Both the position numbers and the translations under genes were made by a program. A stretch of DNA of 64,000 nucleotides from Anaeromyxobacter sp. GTDB lineage: Bacteria; Myxococcota; Myxococcia; Myxococcales; Anaeromyxobacteraceae. This document shows, one piece after another, positions 48,046-63,965 of this stretch; position 1 is the stretch's first letter, and each line of letters opens with the position of its first letter. Location: assembly GCA_049840735.1 (NCBI GenBank), contig JASGJN010000025.1, positions 32,001 through 96,000 on the forward strand, written 5' to 3'. The notes below the pieces were generated by a model. It ran no database searches. It was not told the DNA's origin and saw nothing but the letters and a program-made list of their open reading frames with translations.

Positions 48046-49434
48046 ATGGCGAGCGACCGCTACCCGCCGCAGATCAAGTACATCGTCGGGAACGAGGCCT
48101 GCGAGCGCTTCTCCTTCTACGGCGTGAGCTCGATCCTGGTCCTCTACATGGGCCAGTTCCTGCTCTACGGGAAGCAGGAGGCGACCGCCATCTACCACCT
48201 GTTCGTGGCGGTCAGCTACCTGACGCCGATGGTGGGCGGGTACGTGGCCGACCGGCTCACCGGGCGCTACGCGGTCATCCTCTACGTCTCGCTGGCCTAC
48301 GTCCTGGGCCACGCGGTGCTGGCCCTCTGGGAGACGCGGGTCGGGCTGTGGGTGGGGCTGCTGCTCATCGCGGCCGGCGCGGGCGGCATCAAGCCCTGCG
48401 TCTCGGCCTTCGTGGGGGACCAGTTCCCGCCGGACCGGAAGCGGCTCCTGGAGCGCGTCTACGGCTGGTTCTACTGGATCATCAACCTCGGCTCGGCCTC
48501 GGCCAAGTCGCTCATCCCCTGGCTCATGAAGGATCACGGGCCGGCGATGGCCTTCGCGCCGCCCGGGATCGCCATGGCCCTGGCGGTGGTGGTATTCTGG
48601 GTGGGCCGCCGGCACTACGTGCGCACGCCGCCCTCCGGCCCCAACCCGCACGCCTTCCTCAAGGTCACCTTCCACGCCCTGCGCCGCGCCGGCACCGGCC
48701 GCGCCGGGGAGCACTGGCTGGACGTGGCGCGGGACCAGCACCCGGCCGATGCGGTGGAGGGCGCCAAGTCGGTCTACCGGCTGCTGGGGATCTTCGCCGC
48801 CGTGACCCTCTTCTGGTCGCTCTTCGACCAGAAGTCCTCGCGCTGGGTCCAGCAGGCGCAGCAGATGGACCTGACCTTCTTCGGCCGCGAGGTCTCGCCG
48901 GCGCAGATCCAGGTCATGAACCCGCTGCTGGTGATGGCGCTCATCCCGCTCTTCACCTGGGGGGTGTTCCCGCTGCTGGAGCGGTGGGGCGTGCGGCTCA
49001 CGCCGCTGCGCAAGATGACCGCGGGGATGTTCGTGACCGTGCTCTCCTTCGTGGCCTCTGCCACGGTGCAGACGCTGCTCGACGGCGGCCAGCAGCTGCA
49101 CGCGCTCTGGCAGGCGCCGCAGTACCTGCTGCTCACCTCCGCCGAGGTGCTGGTCTCGGTCACCGGCCTCGAGTTCGCGTACACCCAGGCGCCGCGGGCC
49201 ATGCGCAGCACCATCATGTCCTTCTGGTTCCTGACCGTGTTCCTGGGCAACCTGCTGGTGAGCGCGCTCAACCTGCTGCTCCGGCTCGACGGCGCGCCCT
49301 ACTACTGGGTCTTCGCCGTGCTGATGCTGCTGGCCGCGCTGGCCTTCCAGTGGGTGGCCCGGCGCTACCGCCCGGTCGAGGCCCCGGCGCCGACGCCGGC
49401 CGCCGCCGGCTCCTCCGGCACGCCGTCCACGTAG
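48046..49434 (+). CDS. POT/PTR family oligopeptide transporter (second paralog)
   Basis: EACERFSFYG; GGIKPCVSAFVGDQF; GLEFAYTQAP. Confidence 0.93.
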   Translation: MASDRYPPQIKYIVGNEACERFSFYGVSSILVLYMGQFLLYGKQEATAIYHLFVAVSYLTPMVGGYVADRLTGRYAVILYVSLAYVLGHAVLALWETRVGLWVGLLLIAAGAGGIKPCVSAFVGDQFPPDRKRLLERVYGWFYWIINLGSASAKSLIPWLMKDHGPAMAFAPPGIAMALAVVVFWVGRRHYVRTPPSGPNPHAFLKVTFHALRRAGTGRAGEHWLDVARDQHPADAVEGAKSVYRLLGIFAAVTLFWSLFDQKSSRWVQQAQQMDLTFFGREVSPAQIQVMNPLLVMALIPLFTWGVFPLLERWGVRLTPLRKMTAGMFVTVLSFVASATVQTLLDGGQQLHALWQAPQYLLLTSAEVLVSVTGLEFAYTQAPRAMRSTIMSFWFLTVFLGNLLVSALNLLLRLDGAPYYWVFAVLMLLAALAFQWVARRYRPVEAPAPTPAAAGSSGTPST

Positions 49435-52400
49435 ACCACGCGCCGCGCCCCGCCCGCCGGCACGCGCGGGCCGGGCGTGAGCAGGCCGGCCAGGTTGAGC
49501 GGGTCGGCCGCCGAGAGCGACACCTGCTCCCCCTCGCGCGGCGCGCGCCGCACCGCCCGCAGCGCGTCCACCGCCTCGGGCAGCGCAAACTGCTCGCCGG
49601 AGCGGCCGGCGGCGAAGCGGCCGCCGCGCACCGTCCCGCGCGCCTCCAGCCGGCGCAGCACCCGCACCAGCTCGCGCCAGGGCGGCGCGCCCGGCTCGCG
49701 GGCCAGGAGGTCGCGGAAGACCACGCCGTAGCGGCGCAGCAGCTGCTGGGCCACGCGCTCCGCCAGCTCCGGCTCGCCCGCCGCGCCCGGCCCGGGCTCG
49801 GCCCCGCGCAGGAGCGACCAGCGCCCCCCGCCGCCGCGCCGCCCGCCGCCCAGCAGCGCGCGCAGCCCGGCGAAGCCGTCGCAGGTGGCCAGGCCGGCCG
49901 ACAAGAGCTCCCACAGCGCCGCCTCCACGTCCGCCGCCGGCCGCCCCGTGGCCGCGGCCAGCTCGGCCGGGAAGGAGGCCCCGCGCCGCTCCAGCGCGGC
50001 CCGGGAGATCGCGCGCGCCGGGGGAGAGCGCACCCCCGTTCGCGCTGAGCGTAGCCCCGCCAGCAGGCGGGGCGGAGTCGAAGCGCCTTCCCGCCGCCGC
50101 CAGCAGCCAGGGCAGGTCCTCGCGCAGCACCAGCGTCACCGGGGCCGCGCGGGTGGGCGTGAGCCGGCGCTCCCCCTCGCCGGCCGGCGAGGCCGCGGTG
50201 AGCCGTCCCCAGGCCACCTCGCCGGAGAGGCAGAGCGCGTCCAGCCAGGCCGGGTCGTAGCCGGCCACGCGCGCCGGCAGGAGCTCGCGCTCCCAGGCGC
50301 CGGCGGCGGCCTCGAACCCCTGCAGCTGCCCGATCACCTCCGCCAGGCCGCGCGCGCCGTGCAGCCGCGCGCCCGGGGCGGCGTGCTGCCAGCGCAGCAG
50401 GAAGCGGAGCAGGTCGGCGGTGGAGACCGGCTCGAATCTCCCGCCGCAGCCGGCCCAGGGTCAGCCGGTGGATGCGCGCCAGCAGCGTCCGCTCGCACCA
50501 GTGCGGCGCCTCGACGGACCAGGGCGCGCCGGGGAGGAACTGCCCGCGCAGCACCAGCCCCTCCGCCTCCAGCAGCTCCAGCGCGCCCGCCACCAGCCGC
50601 TCGGGCAGCGCCAGCCGCGCGGCCAGCGCCGCGGCCGTGAGCGGGCCGCTCCGCCCCACCCAGCCCCGCACCACCTCCGCCACCGCCGCCAGCTCGCCCG
50701 CCAGCGCGCCTCCGGCCAGCTCGGCGCGCTCGGTGGCCACGGCCCACCCCTCGCGCACCCGCGCCCGCCCCGCCGCGCCCAGCTCCGCCAGCAGCGGGCC
50801 CCAGCCGGCCGCGTGGGCCTCGCCGGCCGGCAGCAGCACCAGGTCGAGCAGCAGCGCGTGCAGCTCGTCGGCGTCGCGCAGGTCCGGCCTCACCTGCGCC
50901 TCCACCTCGGCGATGGCCTCCGGCGAGAGCGCGCCCAGCTCCGCCGCCTCCGCCGCCGGCAGCCCCCGCCGCACCGCCACCGCGCGCGCCCGCCGCTCCT
51001 CCAGCGGCGCGTCGTCCAGGTAGGCCCAGGGGCGGGCCCCGAGCAGCTCGTGCGCCAGCGGCGAGGGCTCGGGCGTGTCCACCGCCAGGAGCCGGATCTC
51101 GCCGCGGGCGATCTCGCCCAGCAGCGCGCGCAGCGCCGGCGCGTCCATGGCCTCGGTCAGGCAGTCGCGCAGCGCCTCGTGGACCAGCGGGTGATCCGGG
51201 ACCTCGATGGGCCCGCCGGGCGCGTTGTCCTGGCAGGCCACCTGGGCCGGGAAGACCGCCGCCAGCAGGTCCTCGGCCCGCATCCGCGCCACCGGCGGCG
51301 GCACCTTGCGCCCGCCCAGCACCCGCGGCAGCGCCAGCGCCCGGGTGGCCGCCCACCGCCAGCGGACGCCGAACATGGGCGCCTGCAGCACCGCCTGCGT
51401 CAGCACCTCGTCCACCGCGGCCTCGTTCACCAGGTGGAAGATCGACTCCAGCGGGAAGGCGTGCTGCGCGCCCAGCGAGAGGAGCACGCCCTCGTCGGTG
51501 GCCGCGGCCTGCAGCTCGAAGTCGAAGGTCCGGCAGAAGCGCTTGCGCAGCGCCAGCCCCAGGGCCCGGTTGACCCGCGCGCCCAGCGGCGCGTGCACCA
51601 CCAGCTGCATCCCGCCGCTCTCGTCGAAGAAGCGCTCCGCCACGAAGGTGCGGCGGGTGGGCAGCGCGCCCAGCGCCGCCCTGCCGGCGGCCAGGTACTC
51701 CACCACCAGCCGCGCGCCCGCTGGCGGCAGCGCGCACTCCGCCTCCAGCCAGGCCGCCGCCGCGGCCGGATTCGGGGAGCCGCGGCTCCAGGTCCTCGCG
51801 CAGGGCCGAGACCTCGGTCGACAGCTCGCGGCTGCGCCCCGGCGCCTCGCCGTTCCAGAACGGGACCGTGGGCGGCGCGCCGCGGGCGTCCTCGACCCGC
51901 ACCGCCGCCGCCTCCACCCGGCGCACGCGCCAGCCGGTGTTGCCCAGCAGGAAGACGTCGCCGGCCAGGCTCTCCACCGCGAAGTCCTCGTCCACCTGGC
52001 CGACCACCACCCCCTCCGGCTCGGCCACCACCGCGTACTGGGCGGTGTCCGGGATGGTGCCGGCGCCGGTGAGCGCCGCCAGCCGCGCCCCGCGCCGGCC
52101 GCGCACCGTGCCGCTCACGCCGTCGCGGTGCAGGAGCGCGGCGCGCCGGCCGCGCCGGGCCACCCCCTCGGCCAGGAGCGCCAGCACCGCGTCGAAGGCG
52201 GCGCGTGGCAGGTCGCGGTAGGGCCAGGCCCGGGTGACCAGCGCGTAGAGCCGGTCCTCGTGGATGGGGGCGCAGCTCGCCTCGGCGGCCAGCTGCTGCG
52301 CGAGCACGTCCAGCGGCGCCTCCGGCGCGCGCAGCGCCTCCAGCGTCCCGCGGCGCAGCCCGCGCACCAGCGCGGCGCACTCCACCAGCTCGTCGCGCGT

Positions 52401-53544
52401 GACCGGGTAGAGCCGCCCCCTGGGCACGGCGCCGTCCACGTGGCCGGCCCGGCCGATCCGCTGCAGCCCCACGCCCAGCGCGCCCGGCGAGCCGAGCTGC
52501 ACCACCAGCTCGACCGCGCCCACGTCGATGCCCAGCTCCAGCGAGGCGGTGGCCACGATGGCCTTGAGCTGCCCGGCCTTGAGCCGCTCCTCCGCGTCCA
52601 GGCGGCGCTCGCGGGCCAGGCTGCCATGGTGGGCGGCCACCGTCCCCGGCCCCAGCCGCTCCTCCAGCGCGTGCGCGGCCCGCTCCGAGAGCCGGCGCGT
52701 GTTGACGAAGACCAGCGTGGAGCGGTGGGCCCGCACCTGCGCCGCCACGCGGTCGTAGGTGTCGGCCCACAGCTCATTCGACGCCACCGAGGAGAGCTCG
52801 TCGCGCGGCACCTCCACGCCCAGGTCGAGCGGGCGGCGGCGCCCCACCTCCACCACCGTGCAGCGCGGCTCGCCGCGCGGGCCGGTCCGGGCCGCGCCCA
52901 CCAGGAAGCGGGCCACCTCGTCCAGCGGCTCGATGGTGGCGGAGAGGCCGAGGCGCTGCGGCCGGCGCCGGGCCAGCGCCTCCAGCCGCTCCAGCGAGAG
53001 CGCCAGGTGGGCGCCGCGCTTGTCCCGCGCCACGGCGTGGATCTCGTCCACGATCACCGTCTCGACGTCCCCCAGCAGCGCCCGGCCGCGCTCGGCGGTG
53101 AGGAGCAGGTAGAGCGACTCCGGCGTGGTGACCAGCACGTGCGGCGGCCGGCGGATGATGGCCTCGCGCCGCGCGCCCGGCGTGTCGCCGGTCCGGACCG
53201 CCATCCGCAGCTCAGGCACCGCCAGCCCCAGCTCGCCGGCCGCGGCGCGGATGCCGGCCAGCGGCTGGCGCAGGTTGCGCTCCACGTCGTTCGAGAGCGC
53301 GCGGAGCGGCGACACGTAGACCACCCGCGTGCGGTCCTGGAGGGCGCCCGCCTCGGCCTCCCGCACCAGCCCGTCCAGCGCCGACAGGAACGCCGCCAGC
53401 GTCTTTCCCGAGCCGGTCGGGGCCGAGACCAGCACGTCCTTGCGGGCGGCGATGGCCGGCCAGGCCAGCCGCTGCGGCGCGGTGGGCGGGGAAGCGCCCC
53501 TCGAACCAGCGGCGCACGGCGGGGTGGAACGGGGTCAGCGGCAC
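49365..53544 (-). CDS. lhr: Lhr family DEAD/DEAH helicase; four apparent frameshifts (near 53485, 51771, 50436, 50005)
   Basis: APTGSGKT, TTPESL, DEIH, GLSAT, HHGSL, SLELGIDVG, QRIGRAGH; C-terminal LLRRYGVVFR..GEQFALP. Confidence 0.9.
50036..50086 (+). repeat. REP-like element inside the lhr coding sequence
   Basis: CCGTTCGCGCTGAGCGTA-GCCCCGCC agca GGCGGGGC-GGAGTCGAAGCGC. Confidence 0.88.
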
Positions 53545-54189: not shown

Positions 54190-55396
54190 ATGGACTTCGC
54201 AGAGTCGGAGAAGGTCCAGGGCCTGCGCAAGCTGGCGCGCGACTTCATCGAGCGCGAGGCCATCCCGCTGGAGCCGGCGCTGCGGCGCGAGGGGTGGAAG
54301 GCGCTGCTGCCACGGCTCACGCGGCTGCGCGCGCGGGCCCGCGAGACGGGGCTGTGGGCGCCGTCCATGCCAGCCGAGGTGGGCGGGGCCGGGCTCACGC
54401 TCACCGAGCTGGCGCACCTGGGCGAGGAGCTGGGGCGGAGCCCCGTCGGCCACTGGCTCTTCAACGCGCAGGCGCCGGACGCCGGCAACATGGAGATCCT
54501 GCTGCAGCACGGCACCGAGGCGCAGCGGGAGCGGTTCCTGCGGCCGCTGGTGCGCGGCGAGGTCCGCAGCTGCTTCACCATGACCGAGCCGGAGCACGCC
54601 GGCTCCAACCCGGTCTGGCTCGGCACCACCGCACAGCGCGAGGGCGGCGAGTGGGTGCTGCGCGGGCACAAGTGGTTCGCCACCGGGGCCGACGGCGCGG
54701 CCTTCGCCATCTGCATGGCGGTCACCGCGCCCGACGCGCCGGATCCCTACCAGCGGGCCAGCATGATCATCGTGCCCACCGACACCGCCGGCTACGAGCT
54801 GGTGGGGAACCTCTCCATCATGGGCGATCGCGGCGGCGACTGGGCCAGCCACGGCGAGGTGGCCTACCACGGCGCGCGGGTCCCGCTCGATCACCTGCTG
54901 GGCGGCGAGGGCATGGGATTCGTGATCGCCCAGGAGCGGCTGGGGCCGGGGCGCATCCACCACTGCATGCGCTGGGTCGGCGTCTGCGAGCGGGCCTTCG
55001 ACCTGATGTGCCGCCACGCCGCCACGCGCGAGCTGGCGCCGGGCAAGCCGCTCGGCACCCGGCAGCTGGTGCAGGGGTGGATCGCCGAGAGCCGGGCCGA
55101 GATCCACGCCGCGCGGCTGATGGTCCTGCACGCCGCCTGGAAGATCGAGACGCAGGGCGCCTACGAGGCGCGCGAGGAGATTCTCGCTCATCAAGCTGAC
55201 CGTGGCCCGCACGCTGGGGCGGGTGCTGGACCGGGCGCTGCAGACGCTGGGCGGGCTGGGCATGACCGACGACACGCCGCTCGCGTTCTGGTGGGCGCAC
55301 GAGCGCGGCGCCCGCATCTACGACGGCGCCGACGAGGTGCACGTGGACGCGGTGGCCCGCCGGATCCTGCGGCGGTACGGGATGAAGTCGAGGTGA
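54190..55396 (+). CDS. Acyl-CoA dehydrogenase (ACAD10/11-like subgroup); apparent frameshift near 55181
   Basis: FNAQAPDAGNME; MTEP; GHKWF; QERLGPGRIHHCMR; after the shift ARIYDGADEVH, stop at 55396. Confidence 0.9.
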
Positions 55397-56472
55397 GTGG
55401 AGGAGCCGTGCTGCGCGAGGCCTCGCACCCCATGCGCCGCGGCGAGGCGCTGGACGTCGCCGCGGTGGACGCCTGGCTGCGGACGGTGGTGCCAGGGCTG
55501 GAGGGAGTCCCCGAGGTCACGCAGTACTCGGGCGGCGCCTCCAACTGGACCTACCGGCTGCGCTACCAGGACCGCGACCTGGTGCTGCGCCGCCCGCCGG
55601 CCGGCACCAAGGCCCGCTCGGCCCACGACGTGGCGCGCGAGTACCGGATCCAGGCCGCGCTCCGCCCCTGGTTCCCGTACGTGCCGGGCATGGTGGGCCT
55701 GTGCCAGGACCCGGCCGTGCTGGGGGTGGACTTCTACGTCATGGAGCGGCTGGAGGGGCTCATCCCGCGCCGCAACCTGCCCCCGGGGCTCTCGCTCGCG
55801 CCGGCGGAGGCGCGGCGGCTCTGCGCCGGGCTCTGGGACCGGCTGGTGGACCTGCACCAGGTGGACGTCGCCGCCGCGGGGCTCTCCGGGCTGGGCAAGG
55901 GGCCGGGCTACGCGCGCCGGCAGGTGGAGGGCTGGTCGGAGCGGTACCAGAAGGCGCGCACCTGGAACGTCCCGGACTTCGGGCGGGTGCGGGCCTGGCT
56001 GCGGGAGCGGACGCCGGAGGACCTGGGCGCCTGCCTCATCCACAACGACTGGCGGCTCGACAACGTGGTGCTCGACCCGGGCGACCCGGCCCGCATCGTG
56101 GGCGTGCTGGACTGGGAGATGGCCACCGTCGGCGATCCGCTCATGGACCTGGGGAGCGCCCTGGCCTACTGGGTGGAGCCGCGGGATCCCTGGCCCATGC
56201 GCGCGACCCGCCGTCAACCCAGCGGCCTGCCGGGCATGCTGCGCCGCGCCGAGGTGGTGGAGCGCTACCTGGACAGGACCGGGCTCCGGCCGGACGGCTG
56301 GGTCTTCTACGAGGTCTTCGGCCTGTTCCGGCTGGCGGGCATCGCGCAGCAGATCTACTTCCGCTACCATCACCGCCAGACCCGCAACCCGGCGTTCCGC
56401 CACTTCTGGCTCATGGTCCATTTCCTCCACCGGCGCTGCCTGCACCTCCTCCGCCGCGACGGGCGCGGATGA
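55393..56472 (+). CDS. APH/phosphotransferase family kinase
   Basis: GGASNWTY; VLRRPP; AHDVARE; HNDWRLDN; LDWEMATVGDP. Confidence 0.9.
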   Translation: MSGGAVLREASHPMRRGEALDVAAVDAWLRTVVPGLEGVPEVTQYSGGASNWTYRLRYQDRDLVLRRPPAGTKARSAHDVAREYRIQAALRPWFPYVPGMVGLCQDPAVLGVDFYVMERLEGLIPRRNLPPGLSLAPAEARRLCAGLWDRLVDLHQVDVAAAGLSGLGKGPGYARRQVEGWSERYQKARTWNVPDFGRVRAWLRERTPEDLGACLIHNDWRLDNVVLDPGDPARIVGVLDWEMATVGDPLMDLGSALAYWVEPRDPWPMRATRRQPSGLPGMLRRAEVVERYLDRTGLRPDGWVFYEVFGLFRLAGIAQQIYFRYHHRQTRNPAFRHFWLMVHFLHRRCLHLLRRDGRG

Positions 56473-57158
56473 GCACCATCGTCCTGGTCCGCCACGGGCA
56501 GGCGTCCTTCGACGCCGAGGACTACGACCAGCTCTCCGAGCTCGGGATTGAGCAGGCCCGCCGCACCGGCCAGGCGCTGGGCGGCCGCGTCCCCGGGCTG
56601 GAGGCGGTCTACGTCGGCACGCTGCGCCGGCAGCAGCAGACCGCCGAGCACTGCCTGGCGGCGCTGGGCGGCGCGCCGCAGCCGGTGGCGCTGCCGGGCC
56701 TGGACGAGTTCGACCACCGCGAGATCCTGCTCCGCTACGAGCCGCGCTACGCCGAGCGGACCGCGCTGGTGGCCGACCTGGTGTCCACCGGCGACCCGCG
56801 CCGCGCCTTCCAGGAGCTCTTCTCCGCCGCGCTGGCCCGCTGGACCTGCGGCGCGCACGACGCCGAGTACGGGCTGCCCTGGCCCGGCTTCCAGCGGCGC
56901 AGCCTGGCGGCCCTGGAGCAGGTGGCCTCGGCGCTGGGGCGCTCCCGCACCGCGCTGGTCTTCAGCTCGGCCGGCCCCATCACCGCCATCTGCCAGGGGC
57001 TGCTGGGGCTGACCGACGACGCCGCCGGCCGGCTGGCCGGGGCGCAGGTGAACTGCGGGATCTCCAAGGTGATCCGCAGCGAGCGCGGGCTGATGCTCTC
57101 CAGCTTCAACGACCACGCCCACCTGGAGGGCGAGGCGCGGCTCATCAGCTACCGCTGA
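56469..57158 (+). CDS. Histidine phosphatase family protein
   Basis: LVRHGQASF..YDQLS; GLDEFD; FNDHAHL. Confidence 0.9.
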   Translation: MSTIVLVRHGQASFDAEDYDQLSELGIEQARRTGQALGGRVPGLEAVYVGTLRRQQQTAEHCLAALGGAPQPVALPGLDEFDHREILLRYEPRYAERTALVADLVSTGDPRRAFQELFSAALARWTCGAHDAEYGLPWPGFQRRSLAALEQVASALGRSRTALVFSSAGPITAICQGLLGLTDDAAGRLAGAQVNCGISKVIRSERGLMLSSFNDHAHLEGEARLISYR

Positions 57159-57163
57159 GGCCT

Positions 57164-57356
57164 GGCCTTCGACTCCGCGCCCGCTGCGCGGGCGCTACGC
57201 TCAGGCCGAACGGATCGTCGGCCCACTGTGCTTCAGTTCCGTCCGGCCTGAGCGTCAGCTCCGTCCGGCCTGATCGTCAGCCCCGTCCGGCCTGATCGTC
57301 AGCCCCGTTCGGCCTGAGCGTAGCCGTCGCCGCCGGCGACGGCGGAGTCGAAGGCC
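57164..57356. repeat. Inverted REP pair (57164-57213 minus; 57305-57356 plus) enclosing four tandem 22-bp units (57233-57320)
   Basis: TCAGyyCCGTyCGGCCTGAkCG x4, the last running into an intact element. Confidence 0.88.
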
Positions 57357-57442
57357 AGGAGCCGAGGCCAGGAGCCGGAAGCGTGGCGCCCCGGGCCCAA
57401 CTTCGGATACCGCTCCCGCCCCAGCCCGGCTAAGCTCCTGTC

Positions 57443-58756
57443 ATGGTGCTCCCGCTCCTCACCGCCCTGGCGCTCGCTGCCCAGACGCCAACGGCTGCGG
57501 TGCTCCACGTCGAGGACGACTACCCCCGCGCCCTGGCCGAGGCCCGGCAGCGGCAGCTGCCGCTGCTGGTCGAGGTCTGGGCGCCCTGGTGACCCAGCTG
57601 TCGCTTCATGCGGGCCTACGTCTTCACCGACCGTAAGCTCCTGAAGCTGGCCGGGCGGTCTGTCCGGCTCGACATCGACACCGAGAACCCCGCCAACGGC
57701 ACGTTCGTCGAGCGGTTTCCCATCGACGCCTGGCCGACGCTGCTGGTGATCGACCCGGCCACCGAGCAGGTGGTGGTGCGCTGGGTGGGCACCGCCACGG
57801 CCGACGACGTGGTGCAGCTGGCGCTGGACGGCGAGAAGGCGGTCAAGGCCGAGCGGCGCTCGCGCGCCGACGCAGCGCTGGCGCGCGCCGACGCGCTGAT
57901 GGGCGAGCGCAAGCACGGCGAGGCCGCCGCGGCCTACGCCCAGGCGCTGGCCGAGGGCGGCAAGCGCTGGCCGGCCCGCGAGCGCGCGGCGGAGAACCGC
58001 GTGCAGGCGCTGAGCTTCGTCGAGGACCAGGCGCCCTGCGCCGCGGCGGCGAAGGAGCTCCTGCCGCTGGTGGAGGACGTGAACCGCCGGGCCCGGATCC
58101 TCGAGTCGGGGCTCTCCTGCGCCCTGGCGCTGGACGACCAGCAGGCGCAGCTGGCCGCGGTCGCGCCGCTGGAGCCGGCGGCGCGCCGCCTCCTGAAGGA
58201 CCGGGCCGTGCTGGCCAACGATCGCTCCGGGCTCTACGAGCTCCTGCTGGGCGCGCAGGAGGCGCGCGGGGACGAGGCCAAGGTCCGCGCCCTGGCCGGC
58301 CAGTGGTGGGCCTTCCTGGAGCGCGAGACGGTCCGGGCGCCCACCGCGCTGGCCAGGTCGTCCTACAACTCGGCGCGCGTCTCGGCCGCCGTGGCGCTGG
58401 GCGAGCCGGCCCGCGCCCTGCCGGCGCTGCAGGCCTCCGAGCGCGAGCTGCCGGGCGAGTTCACGCCGCCGGCCTCGCTGGCCTACCTCTACCTGGAGCT
58501 CGGGCGCCCCGCCGACGCCAGGGCCGCGGCGGACCGCGCGCTGGCGCTGGCGCAGGGGCCGCGCCGCGTGCGCGTGCTGACGCTGCGCGCCCGGGCCGAG
58601 CGCGACCTGGGCGAGCTCGCGGCCGCCCGCGCCTCTGCCGCCGAGGCCGTGAAGCTGGGCGAGAGCTACGCGCCCGGGCAGCGGCCGGAGGGCTACCTGC
58701 GCGCGGCCCGCAAGCTGGCCGGGGAGCTGGAGGCGTCCGGCGCGCCGGCGCCGTGA
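57443..58756 (+). CDS. Secreted thioredoxin-fold/TPR-like protein, probable selenoprotein (UxxC; UGA at 57590-57592)
   Basis: MVLPLLTALALAAQ..EDDYPRALAEARQRQLPLLVEVWAPW-(TGA)-PSCRFMRAYVF..WPTLLVID, in frame with ORF 57608..58756. Confidence 0.82.
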
Positions 58757-58849
58757 GGGTCCCGGCCATTCTGGGCGCGGCGGTCGCGAAGCTCCCCGGA
58801 CACCCTGGGGCCCCGGTCAGTCTGGGCCGCGGCGGCCGCGAAGGCCCCC

Positions 58850-58901
58850 GGTCATCCTGAGCGTAGCGGCCGCGCAGCGGCCGCGGAGTCGAAGGACGAC
58901 C
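58850..58901 (+). repeat. REP-like element (GTCATCCTGAGC variant)
   Basis: GGTCATCCTGAGCGTA-GCGGCCGC gca GCGGCCGC-GGAGTCGAAGGACGACC. Confidence 0.88.
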
Positions 58902-58911
58902 GGGGGAGCGC

Positions 58912-63205: not shown

Positions 63206-63243
63206 TTCACGAACCCGTGCCGGCGACGCCATGGTCCCGTCAC
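63206..63243 (+). promoter_or_regulatory. Candidate Pho-box-like 11-bp periodic direct repeats
   Basis: TTCAC(63206), GTGCC(63217), GCCAT(63228), GTCAC(63239) upstream of the PhoB-like gene. Confidence 0.4.
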
Positions 63244-63268
63244 AGGGGCAGGTGTAAAGGTTCGTCCC

Positions 63269-63965
63269 GTGACGGCCATCCTCCTCGTGGACGACGAGCG
63301 CGACCTGCTCTCCCTGCTCGACTTCAACCTCCGCGCGGCCGGTTACGAGACCCTGCTGGCCACCACCGGCGAGCAGGCGCTCGCGCACCTCCGCCGCCGC
63401 ATCCCGGACCTGATCCTGCTGGACGTGATGCTGCCCGACCTCTCCGGCACCGAGATTTGCCCGGGAGATCGAGGGTGACCCCCGCACCAGGCACGTGCCG
63501 GTGGTGATGCTCACCGCCCGCGGCGACGAGGTGGACCGGGTGGTCGGGTTCGAGATCGGCGCCGACGACTACGTCACCAAGCCGTTCAGCGTCCGGGAGC
63601 TGGTGCTGCGGCTCAAGGCGGTGCTGCGCCGGAGCGGCGGCGCGCGGCCCGCGGACAGGCCGCCGGAGTCGGTGGGGCCCATCCGCGTGGACGTGGACGC
63701 CCACCGCGCCTTCGTGGACGGGGCCGAGGTGACGCTGACGCCGCTGGAGTTCAAGCTGCTCACCACGCTCATGTCGCGGCTGGGCCGCGTGCAGTCGCGC
63801 GAGCAGCTGCTGGAGGACGTCTGGGAGATGTCCTCCGAGGTGGAGACCCGCACCGTGGACACCCACGTGAAGCGGCTGCGCGAGAAGCTGGGCTCGGGGC
63901 GGGACCTGCTCGAGACCGTGCGCGGCATCGGCTACCGGCTGGTGGACCCCGGCGACAAGGCCTAG
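63269..63965 (+). CDS. phoB: PhoB-like OmpR family response regulator; apparent frameshift near 63460
   Basis: ILLVDDE; LLDVMLP; MLTARGDEVDRVVGFEIGADDYVTKPF; ETRTVDTHVKRLREKL; TVRGIGY. Confidence 0.85.

Follow-up and report, generated by a model that had tools for sequence, protein, structure and literature searches.

A predicted exported thioredoxin-TPR selenoprotein of Anaeromyxobacter and a putative SECIS hairpin lying 65 nt from its UGA codon

The gene described here was found in a 64,000-nt stretch of DNA from Anaeromyxobacter sp. (assembly GCA_049840735.1, contig JASGJN010000025.1), referred to as the window; all coordinates are those of the window, and the features are collected in Table 1. 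The gene, called Trx-TPR below, encodes a predicted selenoprotein in which a thioredoxin (Trx) domain precedes a TPR-like helical domain. The frame opens at ATG 57443, runs through an in-frame TGA at codon 50 (VEVWAPW-U-PSC), and is closed by the TGA at 58754-58756, exactly as read in the first-pass annotation. The N-terminus is bounded by the TAA contained in the hexamer TAAGCT, an in-frame stop four codons 5' of the ATG. TANNNT is found 4-8 nt ahead of the start codon in 42 of the 124 orthologues for which a start was found. A stop-respecting ORF call at the locus yields 382 aa, from ATG 57608 (Met56). Orthologues align over the entire protein with 40-63% identity, the nearest named relatives being members of Anaeromyxobacter (59-60%). 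Among the 120 homologues listed, 95 start at the Met six codons past the Sec codon, the window's own gene call included, and the expectation that annotation pipelines truncate the gene is thus borne out; the full-length homologues among these 120 in which the motif was read (24) all have Cys.

Table 1. Coordinates of the features predicted at the Trx-TPR locus
Feature	Position	Strand	Basis or remarks
Candidate -10 element, TAAGCT	57431..57436	+	6 nt 5' of ATG; leaderless message possible; weak
Trx-TPR selenoprotein gene, 437 aa (predicted)	57443..58756	+	frame reading, Pfam, structure model, orthologues
Predicted Sec-type signal peptide and linker, about residues 1-19	57443..57499	+	hydrophobicity heuristic
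Thioredoxin-fold domain, about residues 20-135	57500..57847	+	PF13899, PF00085, PF13098 over cut-off
In-frame UGA, predicted selenocysteine 50 (UxxC)	57590..57592	+	orthologue codons; 2006 listing for A. dehalogenans
Hairpin 1, predicted spacer, 45 nt	57603..57647	+	conserved with TGA; variable loop
Hairpin 2, predicted SelB-binding SECIS	57650..57668	+	loop GGUCU 57657-57661, invariant G 57658
TPR-like helical superhelix, residues 141-431	57863..58735	+	AlphaFold model, structure search

REP-like repeats lie on both sides of the gene. Perfect inverted arms of 18 and 20 nt surround a 22-nt tandem repeat in the intergenic region 57161-57359, and a related palindromic repeat is located at 58757-58906. 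Apparent frameshifts were noticed elsewhere in the window, the gene names being derived from reading the translations: an Lhr-like helicase is split in two (49268-53435), an acyl-CoA dehydrogenase runs into a phosphotransferase (54190-56472), and a response regulator is split (63217-63965). No conserved gene neighbours or operon were found around the orthologues; recurring neighbours differ by clade, in clusters which include shadow frames.

By a simple hydrophobicity rule, a hydrophobic 9-mer scoring above 1.8 is present in 123 of the 124 orthologues with a start found (no start was found in 6/130), and a lipobox in 33/124. The signal peptide proposed from the sequence of the window alone holds as a signal-like N-terminus of the family by this heuristic, but the window's own copy lacks a basic n-region. 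Judging from the N-termini, the protein is very probably exported, in about a quarter of the orthologues as a predicted lipoprotein.

Pfam Thioredoxin_7 (PF13899) matches residues 24-105 (E 2.8e-10), and thioredoxin matches over cut-off span residues 24-125. The AlphaFold model, obtained from a 50-sequence alignment with Cys replacing Sec (pLDDT 94.7, pTM 0.90), features a Trx fold up to about residue 135, and is all-helical from residue 141, with 17 helices. The hallmarks of Trx-fold oxidoreductases, i.e. a C/UxxC motif at a helix start, the Trx topology and a cis-Pro loop, are all present; W97-P98 occupies the cis-Pro position, P98 is invariant in 50 sequences, and the cis geometry is assigned by homology. 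The thioredoxin fold, suggested earlier from the letters of the sequence, is thus found again both by Pfam and in the model. The same applies to the all-helical TPR-like C-terminus, in which Pfam TPR models (residues 317-408) stay below their cut-offs, and which matches Pins/LGN-type TPR superhelices in structure searches (Z 16.8, rmsd 5.3, 288 residues). The Trx half matches thioredoxins (Z 15.0, rmsd 3.0, 127 residues), and the solved relatives of this domain are DsbD C-terminal domains, PDI and Trx. Structure searches retrieved no solved chain spanning the Trx and TPR halves, which is no proof of a new fold. No NCBIfam model matches the protein over cut-off: the thioredoxin equivalog TIGR01068 scores 27.2 vs. 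96.8 bits, the DsbD model NF001419 31.6 vs. 330, and DsbD, though far short of its cut-off (E 6e-8), is the curated model which the Trx domain matches best. Only unnamed Trx/TPR clusters, from Myxococcota and Acidobacteriota, were found in the ESM Atlas. Cys199 and Cys226 are on adjacent helices of the model and invariant in 50 sequences, and therefore likely pair in a structural disulfide, a bond to be expected outside the cytoplasm; exactly two Cys are found outside the active site in 103/121 orthologues.

The codon at the Sec site was located in 146 of the 148 loci fetched, which after removal of duplicates correspond to 130 distinct loci; it is TGA in 82, TGC or TGT in 48. In 25 further loci from a second phylum (that of a Vicinamibacteria record, which we take to be Acidobacteriota; one duplicate and one locus of an unpublished genome, G441, were left out) the site is TGA in 23 and Cys in 2. 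The pooled set of 155 distinct loci therefore includes 105 TGA and 50 TGC/TGT, and no other codon. The Cys/UGA pairs which the first-pass annotation had proposed to look for are thus there, the UGA standing where other orthologues have a conserved Cys, and the flanking sequence being homologous on either side. Matches were found in 252/401 genomes of the window's phylum, and among the 150 matches listed 70 carry one TGA. The search of 401 genomes of the second phylum gave 26 genomes with 27 matches, a tally which includes G441. In one myxobacterial family with large genomes the orthologue resides in 160/172 genomes, often with a lipobox, and 2-4 matches were counted in some. Sec codon and Cys changed at least 13 times on a FastTree phylogeny of 121 rows (unrooted; 9/130 sequences were too short and left out; the Sec codon and the 27 following residues were masked). 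Comparison of the orthologues makes it very probable that the UGA is decoded as selenocysteine. Every comparative test applied speaks for a genuine selenoprotein gene, whose product is predicted to contain selenium.

The genome of the window encodes the machinery needed. selA, selB and selD were detected over cut-off, and so was a tRNA-Sec (selC, 73 bits) with a UCA anticodon; the four genes which the earlier reading had called for are thus all present. Compared with three relatives, the selD gene (about 249040 on contig C14) carries one extra base and falls into two frames, as a consequence of either an assembly error or a real break. Sec-type fdh and Sec peroxiredoxin genes were not found in this genome, though four congeners have both. 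These findings could be taken as signs that Sec use is decaying in the window's strain; yet the simplest reading of both the selD insertion and the missing Sec genes is likely an error-prone, 94% complete assembly, since 3 of the 16 genes tested in it are split over frames. selD and the Trx-TPR gene are the only genes with a Sec codon found in the window's genome. Searches of the Trx, AhpC/TSA and fdh families revealed an internal TGA in the Trx-TPR gene only, and a whole-genome codon-bias scan, insensitive inasmuch as it missed selD, revealed no further convincing selenoprotein. In the window's phylum, selA is matched in 72/75 TGA genomes, the remaining three having a tRNA-Sec of 75-77 bits, and in 29/34 Cys genomes; all five orthologue-bearing genomes that lack a selA match have Cys. 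In the second phylum selA was found in 24/24 genomes tested vs. 160/201 in the phylum sample (which includes G441). In G415, a TGA genome of unstated completeness, neither selA nor tRNA-Sec scored over cut-off. Co-occurrence with selA was dropped as a strong test, and counts as weak support, selA being widespread in the two phyla.

Two hairpins follow the UGA, the second starting 2 nt after the first. The hairpin at 57612-57640 described in the first-pass annotation is real, in that it forms the upper portion of hairpin 1's stem, but on this single sequence it is modest (z -1.75, 10/200 shuffles being equally good); the remark that its loop lacks the typical G was correct. Hairpin 1 is closed in 76/82 TGA vs. 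5/48 Cys loci, closure being below 0.5 in 6/82 TGA genes of the first set and 3/23 of the second phylum. Apical pairs are found in 80/82 TGA genes, the register shifts between clades, and the lower stem is paired in 87.5% of cells. The loop has 24 different sequences among the 82 TGA loci, and a G at positions 1-2 is found in 0/82 when the loop is read as 6 nt, in 8/82 when read as 4 nt. Hairpin 1 was not favoured as the SelB site because its loop is variable and has no fixed G; from these alignments it is likely only a spacer.

Hairpin 2 had been missed in the first-pass annotation. Its invariant G is 65 nt past the UGA. The hairpin folds with p>0.5 in 81/82 TGA vs. 5/48 Cys loci, all of its 8 pairs are possible in 80/82 vs. 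6/48, and the loop G, at a third codon base, is G in 82/82 vs. 22/48. Genes coding for Ala-Gly-Arg at this site were compared: all TGA genes of this type (73/73) use GCY-GGR-CGG, whereas 3/19 Cys genes use GCC-GGA-CGG, and the other 16/19 break at least one of the GCY-GGR-CGG codon choices. In the rest of these genes, about half of the Ala, Gly and Arg codons concerned are GCG, GGC or CGC. Protein constraint does not account for hairpin 2, because TGA and Cys genes encoding the same peptide differ in codon choice. Relative to synonymous recodings, the mean z is -2.1 in TGA and -0.4 in Cys genes for hairpin 2, -2.4 and -0.6 for hairpin 1, -0.35 and 0.06 for two control stretches. Four of the 8 pairs of hairpin 2 are invariant, three vary on one side, and one varies on both; a compensatory change from G-C to A-U at the top pair is found in 7/77 rows, and recurs in the second phylum (L265, L267). 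The covariation test on the 3' hairpins gave thin support in both, and kinship inflates all conservation counts. The exact hairpin geometry follows 49 of the 83,313 TGA triplets of the window's genome, and the loop GGUCU is the same found in fdh genes of the genus.

Of nine independent pairs on well-supported branches of the tree, an average of 6.9 have hairpin 2 on the TGA side, none has it on the opposite side, and 2.1 are ties (sign test, median p 0.016, range 0.008-0.06). The loci of the second phylum were fetched only after the hypothesis on hairpin 2 had been written down, and make up a held-out set: hairpin 2 was found in 23/23 TGA orthologues, in register in 21, and 3 nt closer to the UGA in the other two, both of which have lost a codon within hairpin 1. 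Hairpin 2 is gone from one of this phylum's two Cys genes and kept in the other. Hairpin 2 with its G is also kept by the Cys orthologues L233, L239, L241, L027 and L256, several of which are in selA genomes. Since most of these five sit among TGA genes on the tree, they are likely recent Sec-to-Cys reversions, the direction of change being read from an unrooted tree.

According to the rule for bacteria, the SelB-binding loop is found 16-37 nt past the UGA, as set out in the available part of PMC13188914, from which the bSECIS criteria used in our own hairpin scan were also taken (loop of 3-9 nt, stem of 4-16 bp, early G, -7.5 kcal/mol or lower). Hairpin 2 resembles the canonical bSECIS of the E. 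coli fdhF type in loop, stem, early G and energy, featuring a loop of 3-5 nt, a stem of 7-8 bp, -13.8 kcal/mol, and, at loop position 1 or 2, a G with U/G after it. It departs from it in spacing, the loop being located 64-65 nt from the UGA, behind the conserved 45-nt hairpin. At 16-37 nt, a populated G-loop hairpin is absent in 77/82 TGA genes (present in 5/82), and no G-loop hairpin of at least 4 bp is found there in the window. Other selenoprotein genes of the genus have a populated G-loop hairpin in this interval in 41/48 cases (selD 24/28, peroxiredoxin 12/12, fdh 5/8). Loose scans also detect G-loop hairpins in Cys genes (28/48 at 38-75 nt, 17/48 at 16-37 nt), and therefore only the position-specific test discriminates. 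Rfam searches of 57100-58000 detected no SECIS or other family near threshold. A covariance model was discarded as support: it matches all the 26 sources given, both Cys genes included, and adds nothing since it is sequence-driven. Hairpin 2 is, by these comparisons, probably the SelB site. The selD genes of the genus (27 congeners and the window's genome) similarly have two adjacent hairpins after the UGA, one of 19 nt followed by one with a GU loop at 32-33 nt; theirs is a smaller spacer-plus-SECIS layout, yet within the known 16-37 nt range.

The reading preferred, to which a probability of about 0.7 is assigned, is that the locus encodes an exported Trx-TPR selenoprotein, whose UGA would be decoded via SelB bound to the distal hairpin, the 45-nt spacer being folded out. 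SelB on the GU-loop hairpin 65 nt downstream would direct Sec insertion at the UGA. About 11 nt of mRNA lie under the ribosome (PMC4513850, available part). Once the UGA has entered the A site, some 10-11 nt would be inside the ribosome and hairpin 1 would begin at the mRNA entry; by folding out 15 codons, it would place the GU loop where SelB expects a SECIS. The base of hairpin 2 would then be about 12 unpaired nt from the UGA; SECIS stems of fdh and most peroxiredoxin genes of the same genus are 8-18 nt from it. The unpaired spacer is 12-14 nt long in 80/82 TGA genes of the first set and 12-13 nt in 21/23 of the second phylum, vs. 12-14 nt in 22/48 Cys genes (spread 9-27), figures which are partly built in, as 9 nt were held single-stranded. 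It may be speculated that the residues just past UxxC are too constrained to carry the SelB loop, and that the hairpin is distal for this reason. In broader terms, it is reasonably probable that a natural SECIS works 65 nt from its UGA by means of a dedicated spacer hairpin in two phyla and across at least 13 Sec/Cys switches.

Other explanations were weighed. A sequencing error at the TGA is very improbable, and so is a genuine stop there, marking a pseudogene or a cytoplasmic 382-aa TPR protein made from Met56. The assembly does have frameshifts, databases hold the 382-aa form and 94 alike, and some ribosomes terminate at Sec codons (PMC4513850, available part); a miscall at 57592, beside a CCTGG site, is nevertheless excluded because the TGA recurs in 104 other distinct loci, including the complete genome of a named isolate (L022). 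The 49 codons upstream of the TGA, moreover, encode conserved protein with a signal-like start, and the short form would, according to the model, miss the initial strands of the Trx fold as well as its attacking residue. The gene may instead encode a selenoprotein in which SelB binds hairpin 1, whose loop is 30 nt from the UGA, as an atypical G-less SECIS, hairpin 2 being only a helper which e.g. slows the ribosome or stabilises the fold. Such an arrangement fits the 16-37 nt spacing, hairpin 1 is conserved in TGA genes with a recoding z lower than that of hairpin 2, and reviews admit exceptions to the model among bacterial SECIS (PMC13326102, PMC13188914, available parts). It is unlikely all the same, as other selenoprotein genes served by the same SelB use G-loops, and the loop G of hairpin 2 is invariant despite its synonymous position, distance being the only point in which this hairpin departs from the published loop pattern. 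Somewhat less likely still is a composite element made of both hairpins, or the early recruitment of SelB by hairpin 2 without folding of the spacer. For E. coli fdhF it has been proposed that SelB is recruited while the SECIS is still far from the ribosome (PMC4513850, available part), and TGA genes in which hairpin 1 closes poorly would accord with it; the unpaired distance survives a 3-nt deletion inside hairpin 1, as the spacer model predicts, and that model is favoured for this reason.

Least certain is the functional step of the scheme: in the periplasm, the Sec50-Cys53 pair would act on envelope proteins lodged in the TPR groove, reducing or reshuffling their disulfides, DsbD would re-reduce the pair, and the protein would work like an exported CnoX. 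A DsbD-fed reductase or isomerase is proposed because DsbD C-terminal domains are among the closest relatives of the Trx domain, both curated and solved; the window's genome has a gene ending in a DsbD C-terminal-type domain, as judged by reading its translation. The role of disulfide reductase or isomerase is taken to be slightly the better guess; both 'oxidoreductase' and 'substrate-binding TPR arm', as the protein had been labelled earlier, are inferred terms. The exported selenoprotein might rather act as an oxidase, as a peroxide or sulfenic-acid repair enzyme, or as a scaffold for one envelope partner, alternatives which together are tentative and less probable. Neighbouring genes are uninformative, no characterised relative or solved full architecture was found in the searches, and the residue ahead of the cis-Pro is Trp (W97), which differs from the residues usual in Trx, DsbA or DsbC. 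The curated and solved relatives speak against these roles, as they are DsbD, its C-terminal domains, Trx and PDI, and not DsbA.

The Sec site itself is not new: a prediction of 2006 already placed it in the A. dehalogenans orthologue. In the available part of Zhang et al. 2006 (PMC1794560, supplementary file 4) this is listed as a 76-aa Sec 'thioredoxin' (Anaeromyxobacter_dehalogenans_1), a member of the same family with the same Sec site (WAPWU-PTC), which matches the Trx part. The entry differs in being a fragment devoid of the signal peptide and of the TPR part of 300 residues; it comes from one species and is grouped among plain thioredoxins; no SECIS for it was found in the part of PMC1794560 available. 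UxxC Trx-fold selenoproteins (PF00085, PF13098, NF041199, SaoT, HUIPC-motif; PMC13188914) share the Trx fold, the attacking Sec and Cys homologues with the protein described here. All of them, including PF13098 (thiol:disulfide interchange protein) and NF041199 (Trx7/PDZ), appear in the 119-family table of PMC13188914, which has no Trx-TPR row in the part available. The TsoB model scores 29.7 bits vs. a cut-off of 805, and none of the families of Haft and Tolstoy 2025, as far as named in the review table, matches over cut-off. CnoX/YbbN also combines an N-terminal Trx domain with a C-terminal TPR domain, some members having an active CXXC, in cytoplasmic GroEL/DnaK systems, with about 285 aa and ten TPR helices (PMC8129009, available part). 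The Trx-TPR protein differs from it in the signal-like N-terminus, the 17 helices after the Trx domain, and Sec; superposition of the whole model on solved YbbN gives TM 0.19-0.21 and rmsd 23 A, the Trx domain alone being alignable, and no CnoX model is among the NCBIfam matches. Neither a Trx-TPR selenoprotein nor a bacterial SECIS located beyond 37 nt and reached via a spacer hairpin was found in the literature covered, which consists mostly of titles and abstract starts, with few subscription journals (and includes available parts of PMC12013277, bioRxiv 10.1101/2022.07.06.499078, PMC10778597, PMC1914089 and PMC13745706); within this literature, the exported Trx-TPR architecture and its recoding signal were not found catalogued. 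BSepDB (PMC13326102) may hold Trx-TPR genes under thioredoxin.

The family is mostly stored in databases without signal peptide and active site, an annotation which the present analysis corrects. According to the available part of PMC13326102, a canonical element is missing in 12.6% of the 57,630 bacterial selenoproteins catalogued, a fact left unexplained there. If the spacer reading is true, the distance between UGA and SECIS would be measured on the folded mRNA, which may account for part of the bacterial selenoprotein genes in which no canonical SECIS is found. SECIS-based gene finding could be widened, and in recombinant selenoproteins the SECIS could be placed away from the residues beside Sec. 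Changes from Sec to Cys are called rare outside FdhA and SelD in the parts of the literature available. The family provides many Sec/Cys switches within one thioredoxin, some likely from Sec to Cys, and indicates selenium chemistry in the myxobacterial envelope.
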